The notes beneath the pieces were generated by a model that searched no databases, had not been told where the DNA came from, and saw nothing but the letters and a program-made list of their open reading frames with translations. A program made the position numbers and the translations under genes. Shown here one piece after another: positions 4,293 through 31,847 of a stretch of DNA of 40,711 bases. Numbering within the stretch: the stretch's first letter is position 1; every line of letters starts with the position of its first letter. This DNA is from an uncultured Bacteroidales bacterium (lineage in GTDB: Bacteria > Bacteroidota > Bacteroidia > Bacteroidales > UBA10428), in contig CAZWGG010000002.1 of assembly GCA_964633305.1 (NCBI GenBank), positions 1 to 40,711 on the forward strand, written 5' to 3'.

Positions 4293-5009
4293 TTAATCTA
4301 AGTTTCTAATTTTCTGAATAAGACCAGGCCAATTATAACCAGTTTCTTTTATATTCTTTTTGATTTCAACAATCCATAAATCAGACCATTTTGAAACTTT
4401 TTTAATTGTTTGTTCCCAATTCTCCAAACTTTCAGATTCTTCTGGTGTTATAAATTTATAACCATATAAAGTATATATTGCCTTTGCTGTTCCTATTGCA
4501 AAAAGATCAACGTTAGCTTTATAAAAATTTACGTCTGCACTATTGGAGTGAAAGAAATGTTCACATAAAGCTGCTGGTGCTATGGTTTCTCTAAGTTCAT
4601 AAAGACCATTGGAATATAACACATTGTCTTTCATACAACCCCTATCATTAGTCGGTGTAACTTTTGATATTTCTTTATACCATAACTCAGCGAACTTTTT
4701 ACCTGTAGTTGTATTTTTATAATAATGATATACTTCGCACCCTCTAGCTTTAAGACTTCCAGCATTAGAATGAAAAGCTGCATGTAAATCAACTTTATGT
4801 GTATTAGAATCTGTAATTATTTTTGATAATGTCCATGTTTTATTAATATTTTTATAAATAATAAAATCTGAACCATGCCCACCATTTTTAATAAAATATT
4901 CTGCTCTATCTCTTAAAATAAACATGTTATCCTCTTCTGTACCATAACCAGCAACACCTTTATTATTTTCCTGAGTACTAGCAGATAAGTATATTTTCTT
5001 TTTACTCAT
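4293..5009 (-). CDS. endolysin, N-acetylmuramoyl-L-alanine amidase (Amidase_3 type)
   Basis: Motifs DLHAAFHSNAG, GCEVYHY and LRETIAPAALCEHFFHSN match Amidase_3 hallmarks. The gene is adjacent to a holin-like gene. Confidence 0.9.
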   Translation of the reverse strand: MSKKKIYLSASTQENNKGVAGYGTEEDNMFILRDRAEYFIKNGGHGSDFIIYKNINKTWTLSKIITDSNTHKVDLHAAFHSNAGSLKARGCEVYHYYKNTTTGKKFAELWYKEISKVTPTNDRGCMKDNVLYSNGLYELRETIAPAALCEHFFHSNSADVNFYKANVDLFAIGTAKAIYTLYGYKFITPEESESLENWEQTIKKVSKWSDLWIVEIKKNIKETGYNWPGLIQKIRNLD

Positions 5010-13946: not shown

Positions 13947-13960
13947 ACTGGTCCTTTTAT
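13931..13960. terminator. bidirectional terminator between convergent genes
   Basis: aaaaggacc-attaaact-ggtcctttt. Both convergent stop codons lie inside or next to the hairpin. Confidence 0.7.
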
Positions 13961-14502
13961 AAATAATATACAATTTCAAGAATTGGTTTATTATAGCCTT
14001 CTTTTGAGCTAAATTGACACCATCTGTAATCTATTATTTCATTTCCAACAAATAACCAAATACCTTGATATGTTGCCCCGTCCGCAATTGCTTGTATTAA
14101 TGTTTTAATATCAAATGTTTTCCATTCATTAGAACCAATTAAAACTGATTCTTCATAGTAAACAGTTTCGTTAATATCTGGTTTAGTATTCCATGTAACA
14201 GTACTTTCTGACCAATTTGAAGTAATTCTTTGCATACCTATTATAGTTGTATCTTGTAAATCATCAGCATATAATTTTAAATTTGCTGTTTTTATTTTCT
14301 TACCAATTATACTTGATAAATCAAAATATAATAAAGTATATAAAGAGTCTAATTCTCCACCATTATAAACTTGTAGATTAGTAGAATTATAAACAGTATC
14401 AGGCACCCAAATATTTATAAACGCATCCTTTGTAGGATTTAAAGATAAATCTTTACTAATAAATGATTTAAAAATATCTGTACCTAATTTTAAACCTAAC
14501 AT
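13957..14502 (-). CDS. DNRLRE-like (carbohydrate-binding-type) domain protein (181 aa)
   Basis: LKLYADDL...RITSNWSESTVTWNTKPD matches the DNRLRE-domain signature. A paralogous segment occurs in the 948-aa tail protein. Confidence 0.6.
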   Translation of the reverse strand: MLGLKLGTDIFKSFISKDLSLNPTKDAFINIWVPDTVYNSTNLQVYNGGELDSLYTLLYFDLSSIIGKKIKTANLKLYADDLQDTTIIGMQRITSNWSESTVTWNTKPDINETVYYEESVLIGSNEWKTFDIKTLIQAIADGATYQGIWLFVGNEIIDYRWCQFSSKEGYNKPILEIVYYL

Positions 14503-14780: not shown

Positions 14781-15479
14781 TTATTTTTTATTATACCATT
14801 TATTACGTGCTATTGTTATTATAGAACCTGTTAAAGTTAATAATAAACCTGCAGATATAAATAAAATATTGTTCGGCTCTCCTGTTTTTGGTAACTCTTC
14901 AATATCTTTTGGTTTGTTATTTGTTGGTGTTGGACTTGGTGTTATAGAATCACTTGGTGATATTGAAGTTGTAGTTGGTGTTGTACTTGGTGTTATACTT
15001 GTACTTGGTGTTATACTTGTACTTGGTGTTATACTTGTACTTGGTGTAATAGAATTACTTGGTGTTGGACTTATTATAATTTCTGTTACCAAAATTTTTA
15101 TGGTCCAGTAATACCATTCTTTACCAGGTGACCAAATATTTGGATTAGTATTTACTTTAAAAACTTTAAATTTCAATACATTTAATCCATGTGTTAATAT
15201 ACCCTCAAATTTACCCTCATAAATTAAATTATGCTTATTGTTTTCACCTGTTACTGTAATTATACTATCTAAATTTGAAGTCGTTATATGACCATTTAAA
15301 GCTATATTTTGACCACCTACTTCTACATTGTTAATCCATTTAATATAAGTTAAATCTCCAACGTTTCCTGGTGTGTATTCTTTAAAGTTAACATCGTATT
15401 CTGGATTATCTGCAAAAACCATATTACACATAATTATTAATAATATAATTATCATTATAAAACTTAATATTTTTTTCAT
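14781..15479 (-). CDS. secreted LPXTG-motif cell-wall-anchored surface protein
   Basis: Signal peptide MKKILSFIMIIILLIIMCNMVFA. (S/T)ITPST stalk repeats. LPKTG at 14880-14894, followed by a hydrophobic segment and an RNKWYNKK tail. Confidence 0.8.
   Translation of the reverse strand: MKKILSFIMIIILLIIMCNMVFADNPEYDVNFKEYTPGNVGDLTYIKWINNVEVGGQNIALNGHITTSNLDSIITVTGENNKHNLIYEGKFEGILTHGLNVLKFKVFKVNTNPNIWSPGKEWYYWTIKILVTEIIISPTPSNSITPSTSITPSTSITPSTSITPSTTPTTTSISPSDSITPSPTPTNNKPKDIEELPKTGEPNNILFISAGLLLTLTGSIITIARNKWYNKK
14983..15054 (-). repeat. 18-bp tandem repeat, about 3.6 copies, encoding (STSITP)n
   Basis: gtacttggtgttatactt occurs at 14983, 15001 and 15019, with a partial fourth copy. Confidence 0.9.
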
Positions 15480-21098: not shown

Positions 21099-24000
21099 TT
21101 ATCTCATATTTTGTTCTATTTTTAAAGTTCTAAATATATCAATAACATCTTCAACATCTTTTATAGAATTAGGATCAATTAAAACATTACCATTAAAATT
21201 AAATATTTCTTGTTTTGAATTATTGTAATTATTATAATTGCCTGATCCTATACCTGATTTTGTATTATTTAACATTCCTTTAGTTTCATTAGCTGTATAA
21301 ATATCGGCACCTTTAGGAACATACATTAATTCGGGACCTTCTTCACCTACTATTGCATAATGTCCATAAGGTGAATTTGTAAGACCTTTTGCATGTCCTT
21401 TTTGAGGATATGCTTTTTGTCCTCCTATATTTACAGAACCAACTAAACCACCTGACAATATTGAAGCTGCTGCCGATAATATATCACCAGCATGATTTTT
21501 TATATAATTAATAGCTGCATTAACTAAACCTGTCGCTAACTCAACGCCAACGCTAACTGCTGCACTAACTATTGCATCTGAATTTTCTGAAATTTTATTT
21601 TTAACATATATCATAGCTTCTTTCATTTTTTGAGGCAAACTCTTTTTTATATCATCCCATACTTTATCCAATGCTTTTTTTAATATGTCAGCTTGTGTTG
21701 TAACTTCTCTTTGTTCAAGTTCTGCAGCTGTTAAAACACCATCATATTTTAACATCGCATTTGCAATAGTTTCGTCTTTAGTGTTCTTAGATTTTTTAAC
21801 TGATTCTGTATACTGTCTATCAGCTTCTTTAATTATTCCACTAGCTTCTTCACTAGAGATTATTTTTAAAGAATCCCTAGCAATTATTGCTTCTTTTATT
21901 TTATCGTCCTTCTTTTTCTTAGCATTTTCAACTTCTTTATCATAGGCTTTATTTGATTCAACAATAATTGCCATAGTTTCATCTTTATTCAATTGTACAG
22001 TCAAGTTTTTAGATTCTTCTAAAATTCTTAATTGTTCTGCTTTACTATCTGTTATTACTTGAACTTCTTTTTGTGCTGCTTGCTCTTTTAAATATTGTAT
22101 TTGTAAAGTTTCTTCCTCTGTTAATCTTCTATGTTCATTTGCAGCTGTTTGTATTATATTATTTATTTCAGCATAATTAATATTCATTAAATCTTTTTCA
22201 TCAGTATAATTTTGTTGCAATAAAGCAAGTCTTTCAATTTCTTGTTCCCTGGTTAATATTGCACTATTTTCAAATAATTCTTTTAATTTATTTGTTTCTT
22301 GGATTTTTCTTTCATCCAATTTTTGTATAACAAAATTTAATTCATCATCTAATGCTTTTTTAGTATCTTCTATTTTTAAAGCATATGCCTTTTTATTTTC
22401 TGCTGTCATATTTTCTGAAAACATATATTGAGAATTTAAAAGACCATTTAAAGCATTATCTGCAATTGCTTTTAATTCCACATATTTAGCAGCGACTTCA
22501 TCATTTGCAAATTTTAATTTTGTTGGTATTAATCCAAAGGTATCTAAAACAGTATATAAATAATTGACTAATTCACCGCCCCATTTAACAATACTTTGAA
22601 CCATATCAATAAATAAATTCTTACTTACTGATGTACTACCATTTAATTTATCAAAACCACCTGTTATTAAATTAGTTATATTTTCTTTTAAAAGTTCAAA
22701 AGCAGGTCCTATATTATCTCTTATTACTTGAATAACAATTTGTGCCTTATCATACATTTCAACAAAAGCTTTTGCTAATTTTCCAGCTGCTTTATCAGAC
22801 ATACCTAATTTTTCAGTTAATAAATCAAACATTTTTTGAAAGTCACCTGATAATAAAGCTTTAACTGTAGCTATACCATCCGAAAAGATACCTAACTTTG
22901 CTATAATTAAAGCAATTGCACCTGTAAATATTCCAATAGCTGTTGTTACTGCTGCAATATGTATTGGTATTATTAATAAAATTGCAATAATTGCACCAAA
23001 TACAGGTAAACCTACTGTTGATATCAAAGCAACAATTGCTGAAATAGCAAGAACTAAACCACCAAAAGTAGTAATTAAAATACCTATTCCAGAAATAATT
23101 GGACCTATTAAAGTTGTAAGTAAAGCTAATACAATTGATAAATCTTTTACCGGACCAGGCAAATTAAAAAATCCTTCAGCTAATATTTGCAATTTATCAG
23201 CAAAAAATTCTATAATTGGTATTAATCGATCACCAATTTGAATTGCAATGCCTTCTAAAACACTTTTTAATTTAGTTATTTTACCAGCCAAATTATCTTG
23301 CATAGTTTTAGCCATTGCAGATAAAGCACCCTCTGAATTATATAATTTACCTGTTAATTTATCTAATTCTTCACTAGTACCATTTAATAAAGCGTTTAGT
23401 TCTTTGGTCCTTGTTTTTCCACCTATCATTTGTACATAAGCATCTCTTTGTTTATCTGTCATATCTGCAAATTTTTCATTTAGTTCTTTTAATATAACTG
23501 TCATACCTCTGAATTTTCCATGACCATCATACAAATCAATGTTTAATTCTTTCATTGCTTTACCTGCTCTACCTGTTCCAGTTGTCAAGTTATTCATGAT
23601 AGATATTACAGCGTTTCCTGCTTCGGCCCCTTTATAACCTCTATTTGCTAATATACCTAATAATGCACCGGCTTCTTCTAAAGGAACATTAAACATTTTA
23701 AAAGAACCACCAGCTGTAACCATTGCTTCAAGAAATTGTTCCATAGTTTGATTACTATTTATTTGTGCATTTGCTGCAATATCCAAATATTTAGCCATGT
23801 CTTTTGTTCCAATACCTAAAGCAGCCATACTATCAGTAACTAAATCACTAGTTCTTCCTAGATCCATCATACCAGCTTCGGATGCTCTAATCATAGGTTC
23901 TAAACCTTCTTGAATTTGTGTTAAATCCCATCCAGCCAAACCCATATATTCAATAGCTTCTGCAGCTTCTGTTGCTGTTTTTGAAGTACTTGAACCCATA

Positions 24001-24266: not shown

Positions 24267-24593
24267 CTAGCTTTTAATATTTGCTACCTTCTTGCATATA
24301 ACTTTTATATGGTGATTTCTATTAACTGTGTTTTTTGGATCTCCTATAACTTCATAAGTTCCTGAATTATAAACAATCAAATCACCTGCAATTAAATCAA
24401 AATCGTCACATAAAAATTTATACAATGTTTCTGTAGTTTCTTTATCTGCTACTTTTACATTTTGCATTCTATAAGCTGACATATAACCATTTATATTTGT
24501 ATCAGCATATGTTGTTATTGGTCTACCTCTAGTATTTTGTGTTTCTGTCTTTCTTTTTCTAACACATGCTTGATATGCTCTTTTTAAGCTCAT
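24267..24593 (-). CDS. head-closure / head-tail adaptor-like protein (108 aa)
   Basis: Size, ATGA coupling to the gp6-like gene, and a C-terminal ...GTYEVIGDP... pattern. Confidence 0.5.
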   Translation of the reverse strand: MSLKRAYQACVRKRKTETQNTRGRPITTYADTNINGYMSAYRMQNVKVADKETTETLYKFLCDDFDLIAGDLIVYNSGTYEVIGDPKNTVNRNHHIKVICKKVANIKS

Positions 24594-25189
24594 AAAATCA
24601 CCTTCAAGCTACTAAATAAATCTTTCTTAAATAAATGTCTATATCTTTGTAAAGCTACCATATAACTTAAAGGATAACCCTGAATAGTATCCTCTAAAGT
24701 TATAGTATAATCATCAATTTTTTCTGATTTCATACCTGGTGTAAATTCATCTGTATTTGTTGTTAATTGATAATTAATCATTTTAGCAGCCACAAATTTT
24801 AAAGGTATTGGGTATTTAACTTTTGTAATATATACAGTTTCAGATTCATCTTCATCCTGTATTGTATCAATACTATTTATTATAATTTTATTAGTGCTTA
24901 CAGAACTAACTGTAAATACTTGATTATTTCTAAAACTCTTATACACTCTTATAGAATCATTAGCAACTATTTTTTTTGTTGAAATGTTTGTTAAATTTAT
25001 ACTATTATCACTATTAACAAAAGTGATATCATTACTAGAAAAAAAGTCAAATTCTTCATCAATAAAGTCATTCTTACAATAATCAACTATATCCTGTTCT
25101 ACTAATGGAATAAACATATTAATTAATGAATCATTAGTATCAACATCAATTTGTAATATTGTTTTTACTTCATCTAAAGTTATAATCAT
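24590..25189 (-). CDS. gp6-like head-tail connector protein (199 aa)
   Basis: N-terminus MIITLDEVKTILQIDVDTNDSLINMFIPLVEQDIVDYC matches the Phage_connect_1 (PF05135) pattern. Confidence 0.65.
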   Translation of the reverse strand: MIITLDEVKTILQIDVDTNDSLINMFIPLVEQDIVDYCKNDFIDEEFDFFSSNDITFVNSDNSINLTNISTKKIVANDSIRVYKSFRNNQVFTVSSVSTNKIIINSIDTIQDEDESETVYITKVKYPIPLKFVAAKMINYQLTTNTDEFTPGMKSEKIDDYTITLEDTIQGYPLSYMVALQRYRHLFKKDLFSSLKVIL

Positions 25190-26036: not shown

Positions 26037-26597
26037 TTAAGCTACTTCATCCTGTATAACTATAGGTGGTGTTGTTGGTGCTGCTGCTGTATAAAATCCA
26101 GTATAAGTCATTTCTGAAATGATTTCGTCTTTTTCCTTAAATTCTAAAGAAATATTATCTATATTTAAAGCATTTTCAACTTTAATTATGCAATAAGATC
26201 CATCATGTTTTTGTCCTACAAAAGTGATATTTGTTAAAACATCAGCTGCAACTATATCTAAATCAAAAGCAATTTTTTTATATGTTCCATCTGCATCCGT
26301 TCCATCACTTACAGTAATTGGTACACCATAAGCCAAATTTACATAATTTAATTTTAGAAAATTTACTACTAATTTAGCAACAAACCTATCATATCTTCTA
26401 AGCCCTTTAGTTGGACCCATAGCACCATCATAAGCTATTTCTTTTATTACTCTTTCAATTTCTAATTTTGAACCGCCTCTTGTTGCTCCAATTACAGCTT
26501 CACCAGATTCACCATAATTTTTATATAAAACGCCCTCACCTAAAAGTATATCATTGGCTTTTTCTGGTACAGCTGGATCAAATGTATTAGTCGCCAT
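26037..26597 (-). CDS. major tail (tube) protein, short paralog (186 aa)
   Basis: Strong RBS AAGGAGGTG. Sits between the tail-completion and chaperone genes. Paralogous to residues 324-691 of the upstream ORF. Confidence 0.65.
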   Translation of the reverse strand: MATNTFDPAVPEKANDILLGEGVLYKNYGESGEAVIGATRGGSKLEIERVIKEIAYDGAMGPTKGLRRYDRFVAKLVVNFLKLNYVNLAYGVPITVSDGTDADGTYKKIAFDLDIVAADVLTNITFVGQKHDGSYCIIKVENALNIDNISLEFKEKDEIISEMTYTGFYTAAAPTTPPIVIQDEVA

Positions 26598-26623
26598 GGT
26601 TTACACCTCCTTTTTAACAATTT

Positions 26624-28699
26624 TTATGCTACATACTCATATAATTCAATAGGACAAGTTAAACCAGCACCATATTTATAATGGCCTGTGAATTGAGTTT
26701 CATTAACAACCTCATTCTTTTCCTCTAATCCTAAAGAAATATTTCCATCATTCAAACAATTTTTTAATACAATTTTTACTTTCTTGCCATCTATTCTTTG
26801 ACCAACTAGAGTAAAATTCTCTAAATAATCATTTAATGTGATTTCAAGATCTGCAGTAAACTCTCTATAAGTTGTTTCATCAGTATATGTAAAACCATGT
26901 CCATTCATAGGAACAATTGAACTATTTGTCTGATTCTGAATTAAATCAATAGAATCAATATAACAAACAACTTCCGCATCTGGTGCTGCTCCTTCAATTG
27001 TTAATGCAACGCCCTTTACAGCTGACCAATCGGAAGATGCTGAATCTGTGAACGCACTTTTTTTAACTTTAAAATTATTCCATTGATTAGCTGTAAAATC
27101 AGTATAAGCTTTATTGATATGAAAGAAATTAGTTTCTGTCTCTTCCGCATCACAATGAAAAGCCAATCTAATAACAGCGGTTTCACCTAAATCTGTTAAA
27201 TCTTGTGCAGCTAAATAAATACTAAATCCGATATAATCATCATCATCACTTACCTCATCATTATCAAAGGCAGTTAAATCCACATCAGAAGCAAAAACTT
27301 CATGGATACCGTAACCCTCAGTAGTTCCAATTGTTGCCTTTGCTGACTGGTCACCCTCTAATACAATAGTTGTCTCTGCTGCATAAGTTCCTCCATTATT
27401 TGCCCAATCGCCACTTTCCCAAGTTCCATCACTTTCACATGTTGAAATTCTTTTTCTATTAAAGTATTTTAGATATAAATTGTTAATAGTGCATCTTCCA
27501 ATCAATTTTTCATATCGAACCAAAGGTATTCCATCAGTATCTAATGTTGGACCCATAGCACCATCAAAACCTATTTCTTTTATTACTCTTTCGATATCAA
27601 TTTTACAGCCATCCCTTGTTGCTCCCAATAATACCTGGGTATTTAATCCATAGTTTGCATAGGCTTTAAATTCACCCATTATAATATCATTTGCAACCGG
27701 TACGGTAGTTTCAACTAAACCAACAGCCATGTTATTCCCTCCTATCAATTTATTATGCATCACACTTAATAACTCGAAATTATAATCAATTTCATATCTC
27801 CAATACATGATGCCTGATAACGCATTATTTTTAATATAATTACATTTATTTGTTATACTTTCAACATCTTCATAATATATATTATATTCCCCATCTTTTG
27901 TTAAGTATGGATTATAAGCAGTGTTATCAAAATTCCTAACCCATCCATTTTTGTTTATATAATCAGCTTTTAATTCGTTATATCCTTTATCGTTTAATGT
28001 CCAACTTCCACCAATATCATACTGTTTACCATAGGCAGGAACGCCTAAAATAAGTTTATTTGATGGAATTCCTTTAGTGGTATTAAATCTAGTGATAACA
28101 TCATGACAACTATTATCATTTTCAAATATTTCTGAATTATATAAATTGCTATGATGTACTGTTATACTAAAATCATAACACATTATGTTTATATGATCTA
28201 AATATTCACTTATGGCAAGACAATCAACATCTTCTGTATATTGCCAATAATTTGAGGCTGCAATGCTTAACTCATAAGCAGGTGAAGCCATAGCTGCCCT
28301 CATTTCTTGCATTAATAAAACAAAATTTACACCATCTTCTGGTCTACTTGTTACGCCTTCAACTTCCCTAACTGGATATTCCCAATCAATATCAACACCA
28401 TCACATCCGTAAGTATCAACTAATGATTTTATACTATTTATAAATGTAGCCCTTGAACCACTAGTTAAACATGCATCTGAAAAACCATCACAACCCCATC
28501 CGCCTACTCCTAAAATTACTTTTTTTGTAGGGTCTTGTGTTTTTACTGTTGTTACTAAACTAGTTAAATTTGTTCCACCATCTAGTAAATAAGCCTCCCC
28601 TAACTCGTTAATTTCTGCAAAGGAATATATTAAATGTGTTAATTTATCCACTTCATAACTACTAGGGAAATTATTTCTAATATAAGCTATAATATTCAT
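26624..28699 (-). CDS. GH18 glycoside hydrolase domain fused in frame to a tail-tube paralog that carries a roughly 190-aa inserted domain (691 aa)
   Basis: GH18 hallmarks: LTHLIYSFA, KVILGVGGWG, CDGVDIDWEYP (about 28373-28402), IMCYDFS, LGVPAYGKQY, GIMYWRYEID. From M324 onward: GATRDGCKIDIERVIKEIGFDGAMGPT, then NFTLVGQ and NISLGL, which parallel the 186-aa protein. Confidence 0.85.
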   Translation of the reverse strand: MNIIAYIRNNFPSSYEVDKLTHLIYSFAEINELGEAYLLDGGTNLTSLVTTVKTQDPTKKVILGVGGWGCDGFSDACLTSGSRATFINSIKSLVDTYGCDGVDIDWEYPVREVEGVTSRPEDGVNFVLLMQEMRAAMASPAYELSIAASNYWQYTEDVDCLAISEYLDHINIMCYDFSITVHHSNLYNSEIFENDNSCHDVITRFNTTKGIPSNKLILGVPAYGKQYDIGGSWTLNDKGYNELKADYINKNGWVRNFDNTAYNPYLTKDGEYNIYYEDVESITNKCNYIKNNALSGIMYWRYEIDYNFELLSVMHNKLIGGNNMAVGLVETTVPVANDIIMGEFKAYANYGLNTQVLLGATRDGCKIDIERVIKEIGFDGAMGPTLDTDGIPLVRYEKLIGRCTINNLYLKYFNRKRISTCESDGTWESGDWANNGGTYAAETTIVLEGDQSAKATIGTTEGYGIHEVFASDVDLTAFDNDEVSDDDDYIGFSIYLAAQDLTDLGETAVIRLAFHCDAEETETNFFHINKAYTDFTANQWNNFKVKKSAFTDSASSDWSAVKGVALTIEGAAPDAEVVCYIDSIDLIQNQTNSSIVPMNGHGFTYTDETTYREFTADLEITLNDYLENFTLVGQRIDGKKVKIVLKNCLNDGNISLGLEEKNEVVNETQFTGHYKYGAGLTCPIELYEYVA
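27728..27742 (-). promoter_or_regulatory. internal RBS (GGAGGG) plus in-frame ATG inside the GH18-tube ORF
   Basis: Minus strand reads ataGGAGGGaataacATGgct. ATG 27730 is codon 324, exactly at the GH18/tube boundary. Confidence 0.5.
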
Positions 28700-28711
28700 A
28701 AGTCAACACCT

Positions 28712-29116
28712 TTAATCTATTTTAAAAACATATCTCTGCTGTATTCTTGATATATCAGTTTCTGTATCTGGTATTTCGCCCTCAAATTCCCACCAACAAC
28801 TATAAAAACCCTCTGTTTCGTCTTGTGTTGAAAAGTCAAGCCCTACAACAGATAATATATCATCAACATACTTACCATTTTTTACTATATCAGCACCATC
28901 TAAAATATTAGAATCATCTGCTGAATTATCCCAAAAATCTATTTCCATTCGTCTATGCACTTGTTTTCTTGCTGGGTTAGAAGCATTTGGAAATTTAAAA
29001 ACTAAATAAGGGAATGTCGCATTAGTTCCAGCTTTTCCATCATATACTTCCATAAAGTCACCAACTAAATTATCTAGTCTAACTTTTACCCTAGTCTTTA
29101 ATTGTTTCAAAGTCAT
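28712..29116 (-). CDS. tail-completion / tail-terminator-like protein (134 aa)
   Basis: Lies between the gp10-like and tube genes. ATFPYLVFKF resembles DUF3168-type proteins. Confidence 0.45.
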   Translation of the reverse strand: MTLKQLKTRVKVRLDNLVGDFMEVYDGKAGTNATFPYLVFKFPNASNPARKQVHRRMEIDFWDNSADDSNILDGADIVKNGKYVDDILSVVGLDFSTQDETEGFYSCWWEFEGEIPDTETDISRIQQRYVFKID

Positions 29117-29470: not shown

Positions 29471-30523
29471 TTACATTACACTTTTATATAATTCATTCAT
29501 TTTTTCAGAAAAATATTTTATATTAAATACTTTAGATCTCTCTATTATTTTATTAGCATCTATTTTCATACTATAAAAATCATTCTTAAATAAAGTAAAT
29601 GCTTCAACTACATCAGCTGTATCTGGTATATTACAGAAATAATCACCTAAACCATTTCCACCAATTTCTTGGATTACTGGTTTCCCACATGATAAAGACT
29701 CTGCAACTACTCTATTATTAATTCTATTTGGACTAAATACACAATCTACTGCCCTGTAAACCTGTTCCATATTTGTAAATCTACCCTTTACGTCACCAAG
29801 ACCGCCAACACGTTTTAATTCTGCTAATACATTTTGCCAACATTTAATTTTATCATGTTCAAAACCGTAAAAATGAAATTTAAACTCATTAGGGTATTTT
29901 TTGGCAACTTCTATACAACCTATTACCATTTCAAATAAATCTATGTCTGCTCTTACTGAATCACATATTAAAATATTATATTTACCTGAATTTTCTAATG
30001 TGTGTTTTTTACCTTCATTATTAAATCTTTGTTCATCAATAACTGGATAATCAAAACATACATGTTTTTCACTAGGAAATACAGGACTCCAAAAAGGTAT
30101 ATATTCAGGCCAAAAATGCAACATTTTTTTAACTCTTTTCCATTTTGAAAGATCACCATATAAACTATAACTAGACCTTTTACCGTCCTGTTCTGGTCTA
30201 AAGCAATCTAATGGTTTACCATGAACTACCCATATTATTGGAGCCTGATTTTTTACTAGTTTTAAATCTTCAATTCCTGTATGCATTACTATAATATCAG
30301 CATCATCAATTAAATCTGGATGTGCTGTGGTTAATTTAAAACCTGACCTATCATCAACCGCACCAATTTGACTTGGTTCTCTTGTCCCGTCTATTTTGGA
30401 TACACCTGAATCAATAAAGTATACAGTATGCCCAGATAATACATCTGCCTTTGCCATATCTCTACTAGCTTCATACAATCCACATCGATTAGGACCAAAC
30501 ATTGATATATGCGCTATTTTCAT
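29471..30523 (-). CDS. GT-B-fold glycosyltransferase (GT4-like) inside the structural module
   Basis: MKIAHISMFGPN..., and C-terminal NRVVAESLSCGKPVI (E-x7-like motif). ATG 30523 lies 8 nt after GAGAGGGG, so the TTG at 30541 in the ORF track was rejected. Confidence 0.7.
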   Translation of the reverse strand: MKIAHISMFGPNRCGLYEASRDMAKADVLSGHTVYFIDSGVSKIDGTREPSQIGAVDDRSGFKLTTAHPDLIDDADIIVMHTGIEDLKLVKNQAPIIWVVHGKPLDCFRPEQDGKRSSYSLYGDLSKWKRVKKMLHFWPEYIPFWSPVFPSEKHVCFDYPVIDEQRFNNEGKKHTLENSGKYNILICDSVRADIDLFEMVIGCIEVAKKYPNEFKFHFYGFEHDKIKCWQNVLAELKRVGGLGDVKGRFTNMEQVYRAVDCVFSPNRINNRVVAESLSCGKPVIQEIGGNGLGDYFCNIPDTADVVEAFTLFKNDFYSMKIDANKIIERSKVFNIKYFSEKMNELYKSVM

Positions 30524-30554
30524 TTTTTTAACCCCTCTCAAATATTTATATATT

Positions 30555-31847
30555 TTATTCTAAAGTTCCTTCTATTCTTGCACCATTAACCCAACAAAAA
30601 TAACCACTTGATACTTGTCCTGCTCCTGCTGCACTTAATGCTTCGGTAGTATCAACAATATTTGCTGCTCCTGATACTCCTAGTATTGTTGCACCTGATG
30701 CTATTTTACTAGTTACTAAGTTTTCTTCTGTGTATTGAACTAAATCATCAACACCGTCATAATAACCAACAGGTGGTATAATACCGATGGTAGTTGTTCC
30801 TGTCGCACTTATAGCTTGACTTGTTGCTGCTGGCACTGAATTATTTGGCATAGTACCAGTTAATTTTGAAGTATATGTTGAATTATAAAATGTTTTATCA
30901 AGTAATACATTTGCAACTGCTGCATCTCCATCTATACCTAAAGCAGTACTTATTGCTGTTGAAACTTCTGTTATTTTAGAATCAGTTACTACATGTGCGC
31001 TAACAACCTTTGAATCTGTTACTACTAATTTAGAATCTGCAGCTGCTACTGCTGTTGATACAACAACAACCTTTGAATCAACAACACCTAAATCAACAGC
31101 AACACTGTCAACTTTAGAATCTGTAACAACATGAGCAGAATCAATTTTACTGTCTGCTGTTGATAAATCTACTGCTACTGAATCAACTTTACTATCAGTT
31201 ACTACATGTGCGGAATCAATCTTTGAATCTGCTGTTGATACGTCGACAGCTAAAGAATCAACCTTACTATCTGTAACTACATGAGCTGATACGATTTTTG
31301 AATCACTAACAACATGAGCTGATATTACCTTACTATCTGTAACTACATGAGCTGAATCAACTTTACTATCAGCTGTTCCAACTAATACTGCTGCTGAATC
31401 TACTTTACTATCAAGTATAATAGCTCTTGAGTTAACAACACTTACTGCTGTTGAAACAACAACAACTTTACTATCAGCTACGCCCAAACCTGTAGCAACA
31501 CTATCAATTTTTGAATCTGATACAACATGAGCTGATACAACTTTTGAACCAACTACTGAATTGGCTGTTGATAATACTACAACTTTACTATCGGCTGTTG
31601 AAACCTGAGTTCCAACACTGTCTACTGCTAGATCAACACCTTCAATTGTTGATGCTGCGCTCTCAACTACACTTGCGCTTGACTCAATTGCTGCTTGTGC
31701 TGCTGACTGTGTACCAATTGCTGTTGACAAATCACTAATATTACTTGTTAAAGTACTATTAGCAACAACCACAGCCGATGCGACTGAATCTATACCAGAT
31801 AAACCAGCTGCTATACTATCTAACTTTCCTTTTAAAGTATGTGCCAT
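30555..31847 (-). CDS. repeat-rich fibrous virion protein (430 aa, about twenty 11-residue DSKxxSAHVVT-type repeats)
   Basis: Repeats read directly from the translation. The non-repeat C-terminal domain contains LLDKTFY...LTGTMPNN. Confidence 0.75.
   Translation of the reverse strand: MAHTLKGKLDSIAAGLSGIDSVASAVVVANSTLTSNISDLSTAIGTQSAAQAAIESSASVVESAASTIEGVDLAVDSVGTQVSTADSKVVVLSTANSVVGSKVVSAHVVSDSKIDSVATGLGVADSKVVVVSTAVSVVNSRAIILDSKVDSAAVLVGTADSKVDSAHVVTDSKVISAHVVSDSKIVSAHVVTDSKVDSLAVDVSTADSKIDSAHVVTDSKVDSVAVDLSTADSKIDSAHVVTDSKVDSVAVDLGVVDSKVVVVSTAVAAADSKLVVTDSKVVSAHVVTDSKITEVSTAISTALGIDGDAAVANVLLDKTFYNSTYTSKLTGTMPNNSVPAATSQAISATGTTTIGIIPPVGYYDGVDDLVQYTEENLVTSKIASGATILGVSGAANIVDTTEALSAAGAGQVSSGYFCWVNGARIEGTLE
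30975..31580 (-). repeat. imperfect 33-bp coding tandem repeats (approximate bounds)
   Basis: Recurrent ...actacatgagctga... and ...tttactatc... units, corresponding to the DSK(V/I)xSAHVV(T/S) periodicity. Confidence 0.8.

Follow-up and report, generated by a model that had tools for sequence, protein, structure and literature searches.

In phage SPP1 a plain major and a decorated minor form of the tail-tube protein (gp17.1/gp17.1*) are produced via a frameshift, and the tube protein gpV of phage lambda has a C-terminal Ig-like domain. Nested in-frame phage genes with internal starts are known from T7 (gene 4A/4B), phiX174 (A/A*) and lambda (S107/S105 and C/Nu3). In the lactococcal 936 group, one gene gives a plain major and a decorated minor tube form (MTP/TpeX) by programmed frameshifting (PMC6669499). 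The tube fold of the major tail protein of YSD1 and Chi (6xgr, 8vhx) is interrupted by a beta-sandwich called "domain2" (PMC8718954). Virion glycosidases and depolymerases sit on tail tips (Tal), spikes, fibres or tape-measure proteins, and glycoside hydrolase family 18 (GH18) is not among the lysin types listed in the same source (PMC10194240). The DNA analysed here, the whole of a 40,711-nucleotide (nt) stretch of contig CAZWGG010000002.1 (the window), is part of a ~40-kb siphovirus genome of an uncultured phage with a guanine-cytosine (GC) content of 28%, and it contains an open reading frame (ORF) in which a GH18 domain is joined in frame to a paralog of the adjacent major tail protein. 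Judged against GH18-less relatives, the GH18 part is a recent, exact, in-frame cassette insertion upstream of an old start codon, and the fused gene probably yields two products. The features of the locus are listed below, with Shine-Dalgarno (SD) duplex energies in kcal/mol and lengths of proteins in amino acids (aa).

28712..29116, minus strand: 134-aa tail completion/terminator-like gene upstream of the fusion (weak matches only)
28700..28711, minus strand: 12-nt spacer AGGTGTTGACTT from the stop of the 134-aa gene to the GH18 ATG; together with the stop codon it gives a weak SD, AAGGTG (-3.9)
26624..28699, minus strand: fusion ORF of 691 aa (long form), a GH18 domain followed by an insert-bearing tail-tube paralog (ORF, Pfam, BLASTP and phrog_885 matches)
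27731..28699, minus strand: inserted GH18 cassette with its own ATG, 323 codons and no stop, absent from relatives with 99%-identical flanks
28379..28402, minus strand: catalytic motif DGVDIDWE (D100, D103, D105, E107), from the translation and the GH18 alignment
27737..27743, minus strand: internal SD AGGAGGG in codons Ile320-Gly321-Gly322, 6 nt upstream of ATG 27730 (-10.7)
27728..27730, minus strand: in-frame ATG (M324), the native 368-aa start of the relatives, where homology to them resumes exactly
26624..27730, minus strand: 368-aa insert-bearing tube paralog, the putative short form (99% identical to standalone protein P0121)
27404..27730, minus strand: N-terminal tube-fold segment, residues 324-432 (43% identity to tail-protein residues 1-106, E 3e-23)
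26873..27403, minus strand: inserted acidic beta-sandwich, residues 433-609 (177 aa), like carbohydrate-binding modules (CBM) 11/22/30 by fold
26627..26872, minus strand: C-terminal tube-fold segment, residues 610-691 (43% identity to tail-protein residues 105-186, E 5e-17)
26037..26597, minus strand: plain 186-aa major tail protein (phrog_885, E 1.3e-29), preceded by the strongest SD of the window (-12.9)

The GH18 cassette and the gene that received it

Residues 324-691, used as a query, brought up 113 clusters of standalone proteins, ~360-370 aa long (43-99% identity, end-to-end coverage), many of them on contigs of 38-43 kb. The closest, P0121, was found on 10 contigs from ENA and JGI samples without GH18, and its contigs have the gene order of the window: 134 aa, 368 aa, 186 aa, 130, 119/106, 199, 108, tape measure, and so on. 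In eight relative contigs, 99% identity to the window extends as far as the stop codon of the 134-aa gene (28712), breaks off, and starts again at ATG 27730. In the GH18-less relatives a 17-nt spacer GAAAGAGGTGTTTAATA separates this stop codon from the ATG of the 368-aa gene, in place of which the window has 981 nt, made up of the 12-nt spacer and 969 nt of GH18; the two spacers have AGGTGTT in common. The cassette has a GC content of 30%, like its neighbours, and ends in ...ATA GGA GGG AAT AAC. Because it has no stop codon, it reads straight into the old ATG, and the internal SD is supplied by its last Ile-Gly-Gly codons and not by the recipient's own SD. The gene order 134 -> 368/370 -> 186 aa is conserved in lineages down to 46% identity; since a 46%-identical lineage also has 134 -> 370 -> 186, the two-paralog layout is old and the GH18 is new. 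Seen against these relatives, residues 324-691 are the ancestral standalone gene. The comparison goes beyond the preliminary description of this DNA, in that the GH18 is a recent cassette in a pre-existing two-paralog arrangement and the internal SD is cassette-borne.

The preliminary description had read the N-terminus of the ORF as a complete GH18 with DGVDIDWE, and this reading held throughout, as did all its other statements on the sequence itself. Residues 3-302 matched Pfam Glyco_hydro_18 (PF00704) with E 1.3e-54 and a score of 186.5 bits, where the cutoff is 29.6, and the alignment takes in positions 2-314 of the 317-position profile. The active-site residues D100, D103, D105, E107 (the acid/base Glu), Y175/D176 (MxYD) and W300 were all present and conserved in alignments A3 and A4. 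Sequence searches against solved structures gave ChiW (5gzu, E 1e-94), with an alignment that spans the alpha+beta insertion region, and the chitinase domain of CotE (6tsb, E 3e-58). In the AlphaFold2 (AF2) model of the full-length protein the GH18 barrel had a predicted local distance difference test score (pLDDT) of ~90 (residues 1-320), its last helix was at 309-318, and a low-confidence stretch began at residue 321. The GH18 model matched the CotE chitinase domain 6t9m (template-modelling score, TM, 0.83; root-mean-square deviation 1.9 A), PbNag18 6inx (TM 0.85) and ChiW 5gzu; a structural comparison of this part had been proposed as a check. The combined alignment of GH18 and 368-aa homologues (A2) was discarded for misplacing GH18 sequences onto the tube region, and A4 was used; as A4 has depth only in GH18, the full-length model is of low quality in its tube half. 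The fusion protein has no signal peptide, as its sequence starts directly in the first barrel strand. Sequence and model agree that the chitinase-type GH18 domain is intact. Its nearest cellular relatives (P0006-P0019) include, at ~35% identity, peroxiredoxin-GH18 fusions from Romboutsia and Peptostreptococcaceae, an architecture of the CotE spore-coat type.

The claim that the ORF is, from residue 324 onward, a paralog of the 186-aa tail protein was likewise borne out. BLASTP of the fusion against the adjacent protein gave two collinear blocks, each of 43% identity, in which the peptide pairs quoted earlier are found, and the fusion also matched phrog_885, "major tail protein" (E 1e-17). The intervening region, described beforehand as an acidic, beta-rich insert with the look of a CBM, fits that account: residues 433-609 contain 31 D+E and 7 K+R (isoelectric point 4.05) and are beta-rich in the model. 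An AF2 model of residues 324-691 built from a 110-sequence alignment (mean pLDDT 85.4, predicted TM 0.79) had the insert as its best-predicted part (pLDDT 90-97). Foldseek against the Protein Data Bank (PDB) matched this model to the tube proteins YSD1 6xgr, 8xkn, Chi 8vhx, JBD30 8rk3 and Mystique 9n71 (E 3e-5 to 5e-4), with TM values that are low (0.3-0.4) because the insert dominates the model, and to CBM11 1v0a (E 7e-6, TM 0.68), then CBM30, CBM22 and CBM28. A search of BFVD with the same model gave many "major tail protein" models. The second of the proposed structural checks thus came out as a tube-like fold with a CBM-like sandwich. No Pfam CBM family matched the fusion sequence, so the insert is CBM-like by fold only. 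Homologues of the insert domain occur in proteins containing BppU_N, CBM96 and CBM_4_9.

At the DNA level, the 186-aa gene and the 368-aa paralog have in common a stretch of 80 nt with 85% identity (26410..26489 against 27546..27625, minus strand; GATR..IERVIKEI..DGAMGPT region). This is far above the protein identity of 43% and could reflect gene conversion or strong shared constraint.

The two start sites and related fusions

On the coding strand the domain boundary reads ttgatAGGAGGGaataacATG, in which the ATG at 27730..27728 codes for M324 in frame. The GGAGGG reported earlier at this junction, 6 nt before the in-frame ATG, is real, and it places an SD at proper spacing (AGGAGGG-N6-ATG) before an in-frame start inside the ORF. 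SD duplex energies were calculated for all 37 starts of the window with the canonical anti-SD. The start of the long form ranked 30th of 37, and the internal start was 6th strongest. The fusion gene has 19 internal start codons in frame, and of these M324 has by far the strongest SD, the next best having -6.1 kcal/mol. GGAGG occurs 21 times on the coding strand, mostly in non-coding spacers, and several copies immediately precede annotated starts; within the coding regions of the window, no copy except that at the junction has an in-frame ATG after it. Among the Gly-Gly dicodons of the window, GGA-GGN was used in 5 of 40 and is disfavoured.

The same layout was found in two further fusions. 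The long-form start of P0001 (contig L001) has an SD of -4.9 kcal/mol and overlaps the upstream stop (ATGA), and its internal start has -11.5 kcal/mol (ATAGGAGGT-N9-ATG); for P0337 (contig L170) the values are -8.2 and -10.3 kcal/mol, respectively. Because three fusions share a weak upstream and a strong internal start, the arrangement is read as function rather than relic. One gene thus probably gives two products, a minor 691-aa fusion and a major 368-aa subunit. Of the earlier proposal that the gene yields both a decorated and an undecorated subunit, the start sites have gained ground, with M324 being the native start in 113 clusters and weak/strong SD pairs present in three fusions, and the dual translation itself is still a prediction.

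P0001 (858 aa) has the same GH18-tube architecture, with a CBM96 module inserted in the GH18 and a 189-aa phrog_885 tail protein as the next gene, and was present on 8 contigs from several samples. It is 58% identical to the window protein in the GH18 and 43% in the tube part, and its domain boundary keeps the ATAGGAGGT-N9-ATG; the architecture has therefore persisted through substantial divergence, and the cassette may have moved between lineages. The P0001 sequence patterns were absent from IMG/VR. The four closest GH18s (those of the window, P0001, P0003 and P0005) form a phage clade with 42-58% identity, against <=41% for cellular GH18s, and each of the four is joined to a tail ring-fold protein within a tail module. 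In P0003 (L168/L169, 583..2409) and P0005 (L167, 69..1421), whose GH18s are 50% and 42% identical, respectively, the enzyme is fused N-terminally to a C-terminal domain of ~130 aa with weak matches to Phage_tail_terminator_6 (E 2-4e-4). The gene that immediately follows P0003 encodes a phrog_1407 major tail protein. CBM96 accompanies the phage-clade GH18 in P0001 and also in P0003. Searches of GenBank phages by tblastn gave distant GH18 matches only, and scans with the phage-clade GH18 alignment found only GH18s of <=40% identity (baculovirus chitinases included), none adjoining tube-like or terminator-like genes.

P0337 (L170, 1135..2733) comes from an unrelated phage with 50% GC and joins a GH25 muramidase to a complete phrog_885 domain (E 1.8e-50); its boundary ccAGGAGGcgaagcgccaATG contains AGGAGG-N10-ATG in frame. 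It follows a Tail_completion_gp17 gene and precedes a gene read as chaperone-like; the 2.9-kb contig shows no further gene for a tail protein. Three other proteins of ~490-500 aa (P0336, P0360 and P0367) consist of an N-terminal domain of ~310 aa and a phrog_885-like domain, and lack a Met where the two join. The N-terminal domain of P0360 had no PDB sequence match and no Pfam match; with its NCxF-type repeats, this type of domain looks beta-helix-like and may be a parallel beta-helix. P0360 (L171, 1696..3156) appears to lie in a baseplate context, the preceding 564-aa gene being read, by sequence alone, as Dit/Tal-like.

Proposed mechanism and alternative explanations

The best explanation overall, held with moderate confidence, is that a nested gene places a minor enzyme-decorated and a major plain subunit on the tail. 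The weak upstream SD would give a small amount of the 691-aa GH18-tube fusion, and the strong internal SD and ATG a larger amount of the original 368-aa subunit. As both forms share the tube-fold core, they would co-assemble with or beside the 186-aa tube protein, so that a few GH18 domains, on a flexible linker of ~20 residues and beside the CBM-like domains, would be carried on the outside of the tail. There the GH18 would cut glycans containing beta-1,4-GlcNAc, either wall or capsule polymers of the host or chitin-like material, and this cleavage would help the tail to reach the cell surface (adsorption, penetration) or free virions from debris (release). A wider reading is offered tentatively, as a possibility: a portable enzyme-display cassette, made up of a start codon, a glycosidase, no stop and a 3' strong SD, drops between the SD and ATG of a tube-fold gene, the pair of starts sets a low enzyme dose, and the GH18 and GH25 versions represent a general strategy.

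Several points weigh against the nested-gene explanation. Both products and their incorporation into virions are inferred from sequence, and the role of the 368-aa paralog is itself putative. Translating ribosomes could suppress internal initiation, and the canonical anti-SD used for the energies may not be that of the host. In the 368-aa family M1, P11 and G19 are conserved at the N-terminus, which may be needed free for ring contacts, so an N-terminal load of 36 kDa might block assembly. The GH18 is carried by only two lineages among ~115 clusters, and the two assemblies that contain the fusion of the window may come from one population. To our knowledge, chitinase-type GH18 enzymes have no established bacterial-surface substrate.

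It is somewhat unlikely that the 368-aa paralog forms one specialised ring or collar (near the terminator or baseplate) or sits on the tube surface, which would put the GH18 at one position and not along the tail. Tube-fold paralogs commonly build single rings, such as the terminator, Dit or the tube initiator. The 368-aa gene lies between a terminator-like gene and the tail-protein gene, related GH18s are fused to terminator-like domains directly upstream of a tail-protein gene (P0003, P0005), and in the baseplate-region gene of L171 (P0360) a phrog_885-like domain anchors a large N-terminal domain. The preliminary description had pictured the enzyme along the tube, and by this account the paralog could instead make a specialised ring. 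Set against it are the 43% identity that the paralog keeps to the tail protein in both tube-fold halves, the 80-nt stretch of 85% identity, which suggests shared contacts and possibly ongoing exchange, and the GH25 fusion of L170, which appears to be the sole tail-protein gene there. A single product is unlikely; here only the 691-aa fusion would be made, the internal SD and ATG would be a passive by-product of a Gly-Gly linker beside the old start, and every copy of the paralog would carry GH18. Such an outcome fits the continuous ORF, the plausibility of Ile-Gly-Gly as a linker (GGA is a common Gly codon in L001) and the N-terminally extended phrog_885 proteins that lack a boundary Met. It does not fit the internal SD being among the strongest of the genome and the long-form SD among the weakest, an asymmetry that recurs in three fusions, one of them in the unrelated 50%-GC phage; nor does it fit the avoidance of GGA-GGN at Gly-Gly sites of the window, or an SD that came in as part of the cassette and has been kept in cassettes just 58% identical.

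Two further accounts are given very little weight. The fusion could be an artefact or dead end, through chimeric assembly, the loss of a stop codon to a sequencing error, or a recent accident without function. The junction 29-mer of the window was absent from IMG/VR and JGI metagenome contigs, and the exact 691-aa protein was found on just two contigs of 20-50 kb, of which one, a 32.8-kb Logan assembly of SRR9700623, matched the window at 100% identity over the 8 kb compared. However, the identical gene stands in two assemblies of different length, the junctions share just 5-7 nt with the GH18-less relatives, presumably too short for a chimera of the de Bruijn graph, the GH18 has no stop anywhere and matches its neighbours in GC, and P0001 repeats the architecture in several samples; an assembly chimera was rejected on these grounds. 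Hardly more credible is a GH18 that acts as a soluble accessory or lysis enzyme, with a tube link that has no structural meaning because the enzyme is cleaved off or serves as a chitin enzyme to the benefit of the host. The closest cellular relatives are indeed chitinases, including the CotE-type peroxiredoxin-chitinase fusions of Peptostreptococcaceae, and auxiliary chitinase genes occur in viruses (the baculovirus matches), but the GH18 part lacks a stop codon, the protein has neither a signal peptide nor any cleavage site that could be recognised, and all four phage-clade GH18s are fused to tail ring-fold proteins in tail modules. The GH18 is also not the lysis enzyme, since an Amidase_3 endolysin is encoded separately at 4293..5009, and the endolysin role was rejected on the presence of this dedicated amidase.

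Were the wider cassette reading true, enzymatically active tail tubes would be an overlooked general strategy for crossing or escaping glycan layers and a natural blueprint for engineering cargo onto phage tails. A catalytic glycosidase on the N-terminus of a tube-fold subunit would show the tube serving as an enzyme scaffold, with the dose set by two start sites instead of frameshifting. The exact boundaries of the cassette would amount to a design rule for the display of cargo on siphovirus tails with the plain subunit kept. The near-isogenic pair with and without GH18, with its 99%-identical flanks, offers a natural experiment on adsorption, host range or release.

Tail-module neighbourhood and comparison with known systems

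The tail lineage of the window has two adjacent tube-fold genes, the 368-aa paralog with the CBM-like beta-sandwich insert and then the 186-aa major tail protein. Between putative tail chaperone genes and the tape-measure gene, head-tail adaptor/connector-like genes were found at 24267..25189 (minus strand), with products of 199 aa (Phage_connect_1, phrog_1236/1161) and 108 aa (phrog_763/501), a gene order that is unusual for a siphovirus tail module. The tape-measure protein differs in length among near-identical relatives (1044, 1051 or 1054 aa), with a gap in the DNA alignment at 21396..21643 (minus strand). Inside the structural module, between head and neck genes, a 356-aa ORF (29471..30541, minus strand) with a TTG start and no recognisable SD had a weak match, under the cutoff, to Glyco_trans_1_4 (glycosyltransferase group 1, E 4.7e-4); relatives keep it at 99% identity, called there as 350 aa, and it might serve virion-protein glycosylation. 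The adjacent 430-aa protein (30555..31847, minus strand) is made of degenerate repeats (VVSAHVVTDSKV / DSKVDSVAV...). This locus is variable, as relatives have a 350-aa gene in its place and the DNA alignment is broken at ~30558-30981. In the large terminase gene, relatives have an insertion of ~1 kb (L008 1799..2806, and L009) annotated Intein_splicing and HNH_3, which the window lacks (site 36025/36026), an intein presence/absence polymorphism among near-identical phages. Downstream of the tail-fibre region lie a standalone 181-aa CBM96 protein (13957..14502, minus strand, E 2.5e-19) and a protein of 232 aa that bears an LPXTG motif for anchoring to the cell wall (14781..15479, minus strand). 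Together with the Amidase_3 endolysin, these two proteins hint at a Gram-positive-type host.

Like SPP1, 936 TpeX and lambda gpV, the window has a tube subunit that bears an outward-facing adhesin or carbohydrate-binding domain, here as a prediction, for which an aid to host-glycan interaction is proposed. In those three the extra domain is small, C-terminal and non-catalytic, whereas the module of the window is N-terminal and a full glycoside hydrolase, carried as a stop-less cassette. SPP1 gp17.1* and 936 TpeX arise by a 3' programmed frameshift, and the window fusion differs in that one frame runs through it without a break, the added domain is encoded at the 5' end, and the dose would be set by two in-frame starts. 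By analogy, the fusion may function like the frameshift-decorated tube family without being a member of it. The 368-aa paralog has a beta-sandwich inside the tube fold like the major tail proteins of YSD1 and Chi, both of which were among its Foldseek matches; unlike theirs, its insert is CBM11/22/30-like, it accompanies a plain tail protein as a second paralog, and it bears an N-terminal enzyme.

As in tail-associated lysins and tail-spike depolymerases, a carbohydrate-cleaving enzyme would be built into the tail and directed, as we infer here, against host envelope polymers. In the literature searched, no glycosidase, chitinase or GH18 on a tail-tube or major tail protein was found, which is an absence of evidence within the searched library. 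In catalytic fold and motif the domain is like ChiW of Paenibacillus FPU-7 (5gzu) and the chitinase domain of C. difficile CotE (6tsb/6t9m), at 31-34% identity and TM 0.83-0.85. ChiW and CotE are surface-displayed and anchored to the cell wall or spore coat, whereas the anchor of the window GH18 is a phage tube-fold domain. As in T7 4A/4B, phiX174 A/A* and lambda S107/S105, one ORF with two SD/start pairs is predicted to give a long and an N-terminally truncated product, and internal-start nesting was not found described in the searched literature for a tail-tube protein or for the dosing of an enzyme decoration. Tube decoration, virion enzymes and nested starts are thus known, and what appears new at this locus is a catalytic N-terminal module on a tube-fold subunit, its delivery as a stop-less cassette and its predicted dosing by dual initiation.

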